From sequence record OK272476.1: DNA of 64,000 nucleotides. The stretch is one strand, 5' to 3'. The position numbers and the translations under genes are program-made. This document shows positions 16,792 through 64,000 of the stretch, piece by piece. The notes below the pieces were generated by a model. The model had not been told where the DNA came from. It saw nothing but the letters and a program-made list of their open reading frames with translations, and did not search any database. The stretch's first letter is position 1, and each line of letters begins with the position of its first letter. The DNA comes from Escherichia phage JLBYU24.

Positions 16792-16992
16792 ATGGTACAA
16801 AAATTAATGGCACTTGTTAATGCCATAAAAGGTAATAAAAAACGTATAGCTTTTACTATTTCTGCTATGGTAGGAATTTTACTCTGGAACTTTATTCTAT
16901 CACCTGTTGCAATTGCACATGGTATTAATATTCCAGTAGTTACTCTTGATACATTTGTAGATTTAGCATTTGCTTTAGTTGGGTTAATTTAA
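16792..16992 (+). CDS. small hydrophobic protein on the plus strand
   Basis: 66 aa; strong SD taaggagga 5 nt before ATG; two predicted TM segments; intergenic between genes 56 and 61. Confidence 0.4.
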   Translation: MVQKLMALVNAIKGNKKRIAFTISAMVGILLWNFILSPVAIAHGINIPVVTLDTFVDLAFALVGLI

Positions 16993-18017
16993 ATCTTAGC
17001 ATATTTAGATAACCGCATTTTAGCCATCAACCCCTGGGCAATATTATTTTTCATATATTCCATAATTTGTTCAGGGGTTGCACCTTCCTTTCTAATCATA
17101 TCATTAACATCTTTTGATTTCCAGGGAGATTTATCCCAAAACATAACCCTTTCTCCTGCATCAACTAATTTAGTCATTCGCTTAATAGTGTCAGGATGAC
17201 GAGGTTCATTATCTAAAACCCACACACGTCTATCTTTAAATGGAACAACTTCTAGGTCTAATTGACCACCCGTAATAGCTATACCATTTTCAATAAAAAG
17301 TGAATCTATAGGTCCTTCTAGAACATATACATCACCATCTTTAACTCGTTCAACACCGTAAATTTTTGTTGCCTCAGGATAAGCTTTAATGGTGATATAT
17401 TTTTGAGGAGCATCTTTCTTTAATGCACGTCCTTGAAAAGACTCAGCTTTTCCATTAGCATTATAAATTGGAATAACAAGACGAGGCTCAGAAATTTCCT
17501 TTTTGTATGTTCCCGGTGCTATGCTATTAACTAATTTAGGCCATTCAGTTGTAAACCAAAGATATTTCCATTTATCCTTTGGAATACAACGAGCTTTTAC
17601 ATATTTTATAATTGCATGGTCTTCCGCCAGTTTATCTAATCGAACACATGACGGAAGAGATTTAATTATTTTCTTCTCAGGTTGTTTAGGAAGTTCTTTA
17701 GGTTTTTCTACTGGACGACTTTTACCTTTTTCTTTTCTTATTTCAAAGATATACTCACGATATAAATCAGGTTCAAACTCCTTTAAATATATTCCGATTG
17801 GTGCATGATAGTTACAGTTATAACAATGAATATTTCCTTCATTATTATCACCATAATACCATCCACGAGCTTTATTCTGGTCGGTTTTTGAATCTCCACA
17901 AACAGGACATCTAAACCGTAATTTAAAAGTTGAACTATTATTTACTTGTGTGAATTTAGGTAAATGAGCTAATGCACGGTATGCAAACTCATTATCAATC
18001 CAAGGTATTGATGACAT
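16989..18017 (-). CDS. 61: DNA primase gp61
   Basis: 342 aa; zinc ribbon CPVCG...CYNC; TOPRIM-like core; length matches T4 gp61. Confidence 0.92.
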   Translation of the reverse strand: MSSIPWIDNEFAYRALAHLPKFTQVNNSSTFKLRFRCPVCGDSKTDQNKARGWYYGDNNEGNIHCYNCNYHAPIGIYLKEFEPDLYREYIFEIRKEKGKSRPVEKPKELPKQPEKKIIKSLPSCVRLDKLAEDHAIIKYVKARCIPKDKWKYLWFTTEWPKLVNSIAPGTYKKEISEPRLVIPIYNANGKAESFQGRALKKDAPQKYITIKAYPEATKIYGVERVKDGDVYVLEGPIDSLFIENGIAITGGQLDLEVVPFKDRRVWVLDNEPRHPDTIKRMTKLVDAGERVMFWDKSPWKSKDVNDMIRKEGATPEQIMEYMKNNIAQGLMAKMRLSKYAKI

Positions 18018-18019
18018 TT

Positions 18020-18184
18020 TTACTCTTCTTTTTCTTTAGATTCCTCTTTTTTCTTTTTAGGAATCTGTTCAGGACCTTTATTTACTACAGCGCCTGATGT
18101 TGTTCCAGTAGAGATATTTTCAGGACTACCGCCTGAATCTCCAGCGACCATATCTTCTTTGATAAATTCTTTATATGTTTTCAT
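18020..18184 (-). CDS. small protein with capsid-targeting-sequence-like N-terminus (MKTYKEFIKE)
   Basis: 54-aa ORF below track cutoff; stop overlaps gp61 start; Lys/Glu-rich C-terminus. Confidence 0.4.
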   Translation of the reverse strand: MKTYKEFIKEDMVAGDSGGSPENISTGTTSGAVVNKGPEQIPKKKKEESKEKEE

Positions 18185-60750: not shown

Positions 60751-60928
60751 CTAAACGAATAGGTTCATGAATGCCATATCCCTGAACAGAAATTTCTGTC
60801 GTAGGATAAATTCCATCAATATCACCCATATTCCACGCTTCGTTAAATTGCTGTTCGCCTGAATTACTAAACCACTCGGCGAAAGCATTTAGCACATCTT
60901 TAGAACCTTCAATAATTATCTTTGCCAT
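60707..60928 (-). CDS. hypothetical protein
   Basis: 73-aa ORF. Confidence 0.4.
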   Translation of the reverse strand: MAKIIIEGSKDVLNAFAEWFSNSGEQQFNEAWNMGDIDGIYPTTEISVQGYGIHEPIRLVEYDLCTGEEVKYD

Positions 60929-61290
60929 TATAAGCTCTCAGTAAAGGTACGAGCAATAACGTCGCGCTGCTGTTCCGGAGTCAGAGAATTAAAGCGAACT
61001 GCATAACCTGATACACGGATGGTCAGCTGCGGATATTTTTCCGGATGCTTAACTGCATCTTCCAGAGTTTCACGACGCAGAACGTTAACGTTCAGGTGTT
61101 GACCACCTTCAATTTTAACTGTAGGCTGTGGCTCAATTTCAATTTCACGGGCATGCAAACCGTAGAAAATTTCTGGGTCTACAAAAGAGTCCTCTTTAAA
61201 GGTTTTAGAGACAATAATTCGTGCTTGAATACCATCTTCAAAATAAATAGTACCTTTATGTGTGCCTTCAAGAATTTGATATGCTTTCAT
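60928..61290 (-). CDS. autonomous glycyl radical cofactor (GrcA/YfiD-like)
   Basis: 120 aa; C-terminus [60 protein letters not shown] with RVSGYAV glycyl-radical motif. Confidence 0.8.
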
Positions 61291-61297
61291 ATAAACC

Positions 61298-61627
61298 TCA
61301 ATTAGAAAATAAATTTATCCAAGATTGTTCTTTAATTAAAAATGGCTCAGAATCATATGCCATTAAACTTTGGGTGATTAGTCCTTTAAAAGGCCCATCA
61401 ATAAATTCCATGGTAAAATATGGAATTTTATTCATTAGCCGTGCATTAGGAGCAGTGCACAAAACTCTGCATCCTTTGAATACGCCTTTTTGTAATTTGT
61501 ATTGCTTGGGATAAAATTCGCTTAAAATGTTATTATTTGCCAAAATTTCAAAATGATTTACCAATTTATTTTTAATAGTTTTTGGCGAAAAATAGAGATA
61601 TTCGAAAAGCTGTGTGTCTGTCATCAT
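61298..61627 (-). CDS. hypothetical protein
   Basis: ~109 aa from MMTDTQ; ATGATGA overlap with upstream stop. Confidence 0.4.
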
Positions 61628-62166
61628 TGCATTCCGATTACGAAAAACTGTGGACGAGTAATACCACCAATGCAACATTTACTATTACAGCAGTAGTGTA
61701 CAGTGTCAATATGGACGCTATAAATCTTATCCATATCAGGAGATTTGACAGGCTCATCAATTATATACAAAATTCGCGAAAGCGATAAACCTCTGAACTT
61801 ACTTCCTTTATTACCAATAAAACTGCGCACAGAATCAGTAAATAAACGAAAACGTATATCATCATTAGAATAACGTGAAAATTCCTTTTTAATGTTATTT
61901 GCAGAAATTTTAGCGTAAGCTGAAGTATTAGAAAGAACAATAACTGTTCCGCCATCATACAGCCAATTAGCAGCAAAGTTAGTCACAGCAATTGATTTAC
62001 CGGATTGACGTCCACCATCTAGTCGAAGTGTACAATATTCTTTAAATAAATGCGACGAATCAGGTACATAAAATCCACTATTACAAATTTCTTCTACTCT
62101 AGCATCAGAATGGTGTGTAAAAGCATTCATCAGGGATAGATAAGGACCAGTTAAAAATGTTCTCAT
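61624..62166 (-). CDS. small P-loop protein
   Basis: Walker A-like GGRQSGKS; Walker B-like LYIIDEP; likely start MRTFLTG at 62166. Confidence 0.45.
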   Translation of the reverse strand: MRTFLTGPYLSLMNAFTHHSDARVEEICNSGFYVPDSSHLFKEYCTLRLDGGRQSGKSIAVTNFAANWLYDGGTVIVLSNTSAYAKISANNIKKEFSRYSNDDIRFRLFTDSVRSFIGNKGSKFRGLSLSRILYIIDEPVKSPDMDKIYSVHIDTVHYCCNSKCCIGGITRPQFFVIGMQ

Positions 62167-62307
62167 TTTATTCTCTCTAAATTTGGGCCATTCCGTGGCG
62201 CATGAATTGTCCATTTCTGTATTTACCCATTACCGCACTCAGGCTCGACCTTATCACAGGTTGGCGGGAATCCCTCACAGAATCATGAGGTCCAGCTTGT
62301 TCCCATA

Positions 62308-62781
62308 TTATTTGAACGATTTAACGTACTGAATAGAACCTTTACTATTCACAAAGGCAATTTTACCATTTTTATTATACATGGTAGCAGTACGTTGATA
62401 ACCATAAGTTTGTTTACCAGATTGATAACCAACTAATGCGAAATTATCTTCGCCCATTTTATTCTGTTTAGCGCGAATGCGTTCATGACCATGTGCCATA
62501 AGAACCTTAGCATCACCAGTTGCAATGGATCGACGAGTTTTTTCATCTTCAACTGTATTAACAAAGTCGTCAAATGAATCAAATTTAGCATGAGATTTAT
62601 TATACAATTTTCCATCTACTGCATAATTATATCCCTGTACATCCATCTCAACTTCTGTACCATCATCCAATACAGCAGTGATTTTTTGACCTTTTTTAAA
62701 TTTCAAAAGATCAGTAAAAGATTCAGCAATAATTTGAGAATTAATAGCTGCTTCAGTGATAAATTCTTGATATGTTTTCAT
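62308..62781 (-). CDS. capsid internal protein with capsid-targeting sequence
   Basis: 157 aa; N-terminus MKTYQEFITEA resembles T4 internal-protein CTS; basic. Confidence 0.65.
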   Translation of the reverse strand: MKTYQEFITEAAINSQIIAESFTDLLKFKKGQKITAVLDDGTEVEMDVQGYNYAVDGKLYNKSHAKFDSFDDFVNTVEDEKTRRSIATGDAKVLMAHGHERIRAKQNKMGEDNFALVGYQSGKQTYGYQRTATMYNKNGKIAFVNSKGSIQYVKSFK

Positions 62782-62790
62782 ATGTTTCCT

Positions 62791-63207
62791 TTAAATGTAA
62801 ATATTTTTACCGTAATACTTATACCAATGTGGTTTCATTAAAATTTTTTCATCAAGTCGTTGTTGACTCAATTTAATAGCTGATTTGCATGGATTATAAT
62901 CATTTTTCCATTCTACTGGAATATCGCTGATGTCAGGAACTTCAGTATCTTTTATACTGAACCCGCGTTTTAAGCATTCCGTTATAATGTCTAATTGACG
63001 CTTTCGCAAAAATTCTAACTTATCGTAAAAGAACGTAACATGACCAGAACCTAAAATAAACTCGGAAGATATTTTAAAATCTTTAACGCGCTTACCGTTT
63101 GCCACATGCTTACGAACTATACCAAAAACACGCGGCAATTCACGGTATTCTGCGATTAAATGTTGATCAGCAAGTTCAGATACTAAAGTCAAATTAATAC
63201 GAGTCAT
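62791..63207 (-). CDS. denV: endonuclease V (pyrimidine dimer DNA glycosylase)
   Basis: 138 aa; [17 protein letters not shown]...[10 protein letters not shown] matches remembered T4 DenV. Confidence 0.93.
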
Positions 63208-63232
63208 TTTATCCCTCCAATTAACTGTGAAT

Positions 63233-63262
63233 ATACTATCACAATTCTAGGAGAAAGTAAAC
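63233..63262 (-). promoter_or_regulatory. T4-type early promoter-like element
   Basis: plus gtaaac 63257-63262; weaker -10 (TAGTAT). Confidence 0.4.
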
Positions 63263-63266
63263 AACT

Positions 63267-64000
<734 letters not shown>

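Follow-up and report, generated by a model that had tools for sequence, protein, structure and literature searches.

Ip4 (IpIV), an internal-protein cassette between denV and vs.8 in a T-even phage, and a candidate inhibitor of host defence

Ip1, Ip2 and Ip3 of the T-even phages inhibit type IV restriction enzymes of the GmrSD family, one distinct enzyme per protein and without cross-protection (PMC12373910): IPI* of T4 inhibits GmrSD-CT596 and is injected with the DNA (PMC3012670), and IPII and IPIII of T4 inhibit GmrSD-ECOR21 and GmrSD-ECOR17, respectively (PMC12373910). In T4 IPIII, residues Y4 and F7 matter for capsid targeting and residues I8 and E10 for processing, and the protease gp21 cuts after L/I-x-E (PMC9026906). 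At least 10 ip genes exist in T-even phages (Silas et al. 2025, PMC12373910, citing Repoila et al. 1994). The matching of Ip1, Ip2 and Ip3 to GmrSD enzymes is only recent; Ip4 is present in ~300 sequenced coliphages. In the T4 genome (NC_000866) the genes lie, in plus coordinates, in the order vs.8, denV, ipII, ipIII, e, and the direction of transcription is e > ipIII > ipII > denV > vs.8; IPI is encoded at another locus, between the tRNA genes and 57B.

In the window (the whole stretch of 64,000 nucleotides of Escherichia phage JLBYU24 DNA that was analysed), a preliminary description had remarked on a 157-aa ORF starting MKTYQEFITEA, and had, by implication, treated it as a displaced or variant ipII or ipIII. 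The ORF is present on the minus strand (Table 1), and it is a real gene and not a chance ORF, as is clear from a full-length match to DUF7412, a match to phrog_3155 and the action of purifying selection. The Pfam DUF7412 profile (PF24183) is matched with E 5.7e-96 over residues 1-157 (profile positions 1-158), and the score of 319.4 bits lies well above the curated cut-off, which is 27; the match to phrog_3155, ‘internal virion protein’, has E 6e-102. Purifying selection on the ip4 coding sequence is shown by a comparison of the window with T2, teqsoen and GiZh, in which 7-8 differences are synonymous and 0 nonsynonymous, and by a dN/dS of ~0.12 versus the homologues of Klebsiella and Salmonella phages.

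Table 1. Features of the e-vs.8 region in the window (positions are those of the whole stretch).
Feature	Position	Strand	Remark
vs.8 homologue, from the start conserved across phages	61624..62166	-	longest ORF 61624-62214
Conserved spacer, ip4 stop to conserved vs.8 start	62167..62307	-	right-hand boundary of cassette insertion
ip4 (ipIV) coding sequence, 157 aa, DUF7412	62308..62781	-	start MKTYQEFITEAAINSQIIAES
Codons 11-20, AAINSQIIAE, probable second propeptide segment, gp21-type site I-A-E↓S	62722..62751	-	predicted cleavage
Codons 1-10, MKTYQEFITE, capsid targeting sequence (CTS), gp21 site I-T-E↓A	62752..62781	-	match to IPIII residues
51-nt ip leader and CTS start	62759..62809	-	identical to T4 ipII leader
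denV (endonuclease V, pyrimidine dimer glycosylase)	62791..63207	-	C-terminus KNIYI, versus KAIYA in T4
Imperfect inverted repeat AATTGTGA ... TCACAGTT, 7/8	63223..63246	-	overlaps -10 region
Match to T4 early-promoter pattern (GTTTAC-N14-GTGATAGTAT) in the e-denV spacer	63233..63262	-	homologous to T4 e>ipIII spacer
e (soluble lysozyme)	63267..63761	-	
TATAAATA, T4 late-promoter consensus, two copies upstream of e	63775-63782, 63788-63795	-	

By tblastn, the protein is 100% identical to T2 ipIV, to RB32 Ip4 and to the homologues of RB18, RB33, PST and many other phages; 290 phage records hold an ip4 copy at 99% identity or above, and a further 160 records, from T4-like phages of Klebsiella, Salmonella, Raoultella and Serratia, hold homologues at 60-80% identity. 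The sole significant match in a search of predicted viral structures (BFVD) was UniProt Q38388, which is Ip4 of Enterobacteria phage K3 (99% identity, TM-score 0.94), and the GiZh and RB32 records carry the annotation ‘similar to T2, RB70 Ip4’. Alignment with T4 IPI, IPII and IPIII is confined to the N-terminal ~11 residues, and so is alignment with the 105-aa ip of phage teqsoen. The ORF is thus Ip4/IpIV, a distinct and previously named internal-protein family and not a variant of IPII or IPIII; it is the same protein, at the same e-vs.8 locus, as in T2, K3, RB70, RB32 and GiZh. The identification as a displaced or variant ipII or ipIII therefore has to be given up, as only those ~11 residues are common to Ip4 and IPI-III. 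All of this was established before: the gene and its name (used in the K3, T2, RB70 and RB32 records), the targeting signal and the polymorphic nature of the locus.

Ip4 has several properties in common with T4 IPII and IPIII: the same polymorphic locus, the same leader with Shine-Dalgarno sequence, a small basic product and a 10-residue CTS pattern with an I-x-E cleavage site. Their mature domains, however, are unrelated, and the genes lie on opposite sides of denV. IPI*, like Ip4, has a CTS-type N-terminus with an I-T-E↓A site, at which it is removed in IPI*, and both consist of one small domain whose fold resembles no other; IPI differs in that its target is known, and it shows no sequence similarity to Ip4 beyond the N-terminus. 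We found no sequence or fold similarity between the mature domain and Ip1, Ip2 or Ip3, nothing below E 0.5 when solved structures were searched with the family profile, and no fold or sequence link to a known effector or enzyme. An enzyme reading, which would draw on residues H64, H99, D47, E111 and D112 (invariant in close homologues), was dropped because not one of them is kept in P0015-P0017, which are remote homologues.

At 139-1215 of a JGI metagenome contig, a remote member of DUF7412 (35% identity) that starts MNFKDFLNES and has two L-N-E sites comes after a gene with a weak Pyr_excise match. An ancient denV-ip4 linkage, which this contig suggested, was not supported: the neighbouring gene is not denV-like by BLASTP (E 0.13), and it falls in phrog_624, ‘DNA binding protein’.

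As e, denV, ip4 and vs.8 are all on the minus strand, the order of transcription is e > denV > ip4 > vs.8. Thus ip4 is downstream of denV; the position ‘upstream of denV’ given in the preliminary description is right solely in window coordinates, and wrong by transcription. That description had also placed ipII and ipIII between denV and e in T4, which is correct per NC_000866, and had seen denV and e as adjacent here; they are separated by a 59-bp spacer without an ip gene, and the order truly differs from that of T4. It had allowed, too, for identity to a characterised internal protein and for a gene order matching the reference: the protein is identical to a named internal protein, the function of which is uncharacterised, and the order is that of relatives but not that of T4.

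The ip4-denV-e arrangement (window 62308-63761) was found by megablast in 164 records, counting those in which one place covered at least 80% of the query, so that all three genes were required; the T4 segment denV-ipII-ipIII-e is covered to at least 80% in 30 records only. The ip4-denV-e order is commoner among sequenced T4 relatives than T4's own. In GiZh, RB68, phiD1, HY01 and JLBYU31, as in the window, denV stands between e and ip4. Over the window region, JLBYU31 (Tequatrovirus gizh) gives the closest DNA match overall, at 99.8%; it and GiZh, the nearest relatives, are complete Tequatrovirus genomes. The head genes, which would include those for the gp21 protease and the gp22 scaffolding core, lie outside the window. 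Other arrangements also occur: e and ip4 without denV in T2, RB14 and RB32 (~72% cover), where, at least in T2 and RB32, the absence of denV brings ip4 directly after e; e and denV without ip4 in HP3 and PYps15T (67% cover); e > denV > 105-aa ip > ip4 > vs.8 in phage teqsoen; and e > Ip4 > ipII in a Klebsiella Jiaodavirus. In T4 and ~110 denV-e phages ip4 is absent. We conclude that ip4 belongs to a set of internal-protein cassettes that are interchangeable at the polymorphic e-vs.8 locus of T-even phages, and is the most widespread cassette there; the difference from T4 is real but ordinary.

Two minor points concern T2. This phage is classically more UV-sensitive than T4, which the absence of denV would fit. 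Its RefSeq record annotates nudE as a 972-nt CDS overlapping e, which looks like an annotation artefact.

The 51-nt leader before ip4 comprises the final five codons of denV with its stop, then the Shine-Dalgarno sequence AAAGGAAA and the first 23 nt of ip4, the denV stop and the ip4 ATG being 9 nt apart with the Shine-Dalgarno sequence in between. Because the leader supplies the final denV codons, denV ends differently here and in T4 (Table 1). At the other end, the T4 post-denV sequence (GGGAACAACCTGGACC...) resumes three bases past the ip4 stop codon. An ipII-type leader before ip4 and T4 sequence resuming after its stop together show ip4 as a cassette, inserted exactly at the denV/vs.8 boundary, at the denV 3′ end. 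Escherichia phage HP3 has the KNIYI denV allele followed by AAATAACATGGGAA (~1480-1510 of the HP3 sequence), which is the last codon of ip4, its stop and the three following bases, joined to the spacer; this scar shows that ip4 was deleted there from an arrangement of the window type. The junctions fit recombinational shuffling of ip cassettes at the locus, a process that is said to have been described long ago for e-vs.8 by Repoila and co-workers.

The identity of the leader with that of ipII, and the difference in gene order from T4, might also be expected of a recent, phage-specific rearrangement of the T4 ipII/ipIII region, which was the implicit view of the first description. Such an origin is extremely improbable and we reject it: past the N-terminus Ip4 bears no relation to IPII or IPIII, the protein has 100% identical counterparts and had already been named in K3 (the Ip4 of Q38388), T2 and RB70, and the same arrangement stands in 164 records.

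The 59-bp spacer after e is a module that also follows e in T4 and T2, in which a T4 early promoter overlaps a short inverted repeat; the T4 record X04567 annotates this element as a -10 region plus inverted repeat A/A′, and an inverted-repeat spacer module of this kind is common to T4 ip genes. The ip4 gene thus sits in the polymorphic ip locus between e and vs.8, flanked by the early-promoter/inverted-repeat module. Across the window, 8 sites match the early-promoter pattern GTTTAC-N14-GTGnTAnnAT, every one of them on the minus strand, against a chance expectation of 0, and the one between e and denV is the sole one ahead of denV-ip4. It was found by the T4-specific pattern; a generic sigma-70 scan missed the same promoter. 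We infer that ip4 is without a promoter of its own, and that transcription starting at the early promoter which directly follows e would cover both denV and ip4. The two late boxes upstream of e are the only ones within 6 kb, and no terminator was predicted on the minus strand between them and ip4; they are the likely source of late read-through across e-denV-ip4, which would give a late ip4 transcript. Translation would start from the conserved ip leader, which runs across the stop codon of denV.

The capsid-targeting signature noted at the outset is supported by residues Y4, F7, I8 and E10, which Ip4 has as mapped in IPIII (PMC9026906). The gp21 motif L/I-x-E occurs twice, as I8-T9-E10 followed by A and as I18-A19-E20 followed by S. 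In T4 IPI, too, the tripeptide ITE stands before the mature N-terminus, with the site ITE↓A. Within the Ip4 family E10 never varies, and E20, with I/L/M-x before it, is invariant in 12 of 12 close family members. In the better AlphaFold model (pLDDT 83.9, pTM 0.78, five models concordant) residues 1-20 are of low confidence, with pLDDT of 55 and 45 for the two 10-residue blocks, and what lies beyond residue 20 is predicted as a compact alpha/beta domain. These observations suggest that the N-terminal MKTYQEFITE would take Ip4 into the prohead scaffolding core, and that the prohead protease gp21 would remove the propeptide by cutting after I-T-E10 and probably again after I-A-E20. The predicted mature protein would be of 137-147 aa and ~15.5-16.5 kDa, and basic (pI 9.1-9.3); it would be packed with the DNA and then injected with it.

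There is a second CTS-like ORF in the window, of 54 aa (18020-18184, minus strand; MKTYKEFIKEDMVAGDSGGSPENISTGTTSGAVVNKGPEQIPKKKKEESKEKEE), with Y4, F7 and I8-K9-E10. It lies just upstream of the ORF for the primase, gene 61 (16989-18017), a position which we take to be that of T4 gene 61.1. It belongs to phrog_1823 (function not annotated) and occurs in 1397 phage records including T4, a spread that far exceeds that of every ip gene; among distant T4-like phages, the similarity begins only at residues 6-10.

Once injected, Ip4 would most likely bind and block a first-line defence nuclease of the host, in the manner of Ip1, Ip2 and Ip3 of T4. This inhibition of host defence by Ip4 is suggested by analogy, because Ip1, Ip2 and Ip3 each block a different GmrSD. 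The proposal in the preliminary description that the protein may have a target of its own agrees with these published findings. As a whole, the proposal that the ip4 cassette encodes a protein that is packaged by its CTS, processed by gp21, injected, and blocks a host defence nuclease is one that we hold with more confidence than doubt. Some evidence counts against an inhibitor role. Silas and co-workers saw no reproducible inhibition of the tested GmrSD variants by ip4-10 (PMC12373910, Suppl. Fig. 9); those tests covered eight GmrSD systems from a very diverse family, and the ‘ip4’ of that paper cannot be confirmed from its text as the same sequence as our ORF. T2 is restricted by both GmrSD-ECOR17 and GmrSD-ECOR21 (PMC12373910): its Ip4 does not protect it from the targets of IPII and IPIII, and this restriction tells against the role since T2 ipIV is identical to the ORF. 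In the literature that was searched, no paper reported presence of Ip4 in the virion, its processing by gp21 or its ejection. That ip4 lacks a late promoter of its own counts against the proposal too.

The very strong conservation of Ip4 would also be unusual for an arms-race inhibitor, and it leaves room either for a structural role in the head or for a conserved target other than GmrSD. If Ip4 mainly served the particle, by neutralising DNA charge or by helping core or head assembly, with no specific host target, then the basic pI of the mature protein (9.1-9.3), its very strong conservation within and across genera, the slower head assembly and smaller burst of IPIII mutants (PMC9026906) and the failure to find a GmrSD target for ip4-10 (PMC12373910) would all be in keeping with this; yet ip4 is dispensable in nature, being absent from T4 and ~110 denV-e phages and having left a deletion scar in HP3, its presence in some phages and absence from others, at an accessory locus, is a pattern that host-range factors typically show, and all three T4 Ips have proved to be specific inhibitors (PMC12373910). 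We consider a particle role unlikely.

Ip4 has no fold or sequence link to a known effector or enzyme and no conserved catalytic residues, and the GmrSD tests sampled just those eight systems of a very diverse family (PMC12373910). This makes it improbable that Ip4 is an injected effector on a target other than type IV restriction, either another defence class or a conserved enterobacterial host factor (one common to Escherichia, Klebsiella, Salmonella and Serratia), although such an effector would suit the homologues at 61-82% identity in phages of several enterobacterial genera, the strong purifying selection on ip4, the negative GmrSD tests (PMC12373910) and the unlikeness of Ip4 to Ip1-3 beyond the CTS.

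Inhibition of a host defence nuclease by injected Ip4 is thus the reading that we prefer. Because Ip4 is widespread and strongly conserved, and inhibits none of the GmrSD enzymes tested, we would add the tentative and somewhat doubtful suggestion that it may neutralise another conserved first-line defence class, or a conserved host factor, and not a GmrSD variant; if true, this non-GmrSD target would mean that the arsenal of internal proteins is not limited to countering type IV restriction. The target of Ip4, once found, would help to predict the host range of therapeutic T4-like phages.

Beyond ip4, the spacer that leads to vs.8 is ~90% identical in T4, T2 and teqsoen, and is GC-rich at its ip4-proximal end, where 62215-62307 has 49.5% GC versus 34.5% for the window, placing it in the top 0.3% of 93-bp stretches. 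A tRNA remnant or structured RNA in 62215-62307 was rejected: its folding energy is no better than that of shuffles (z 0.17), an Rfam scan of 61500-64000 at E ≤ 10 gave sub-threshold chance matches alone, and the ip4-vs.8 spacer showed no covariation among four phages. The T4 annotation has the spacer encode the N-terminal part of vs.8 (219 aa). No reading frame is kept through it, since T4, T2, teqsoen and the window differ there by indels of 6, 1 and 7-9 nt, and the phrog_1488 alignment begins at residue 19 of the longer vs.8 ORF; the ATG at 62166 (MRTFLTGPY) is more likely to be the conserved vs.8 start.

Further along the vs genes, the 120-aa product of 60928-61290 (minus strand) carries a glycyl-radical domain (PF01228, E 2.8e-18); this is vs.6, a homologue of GrcA, the autonomous glycyl radical cofactor, in agreement with the T4 annotation. 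In the annotation of JLBYU31, the homologues of vs.7, vs.8 and vs.1 are called ‘putative endoribonuclease’ and that of vs.3 ‘putative pyrimidine dimer DNA glycosylase’, labels that were probably transferred by mistake from regB and denV, which lie next to them.
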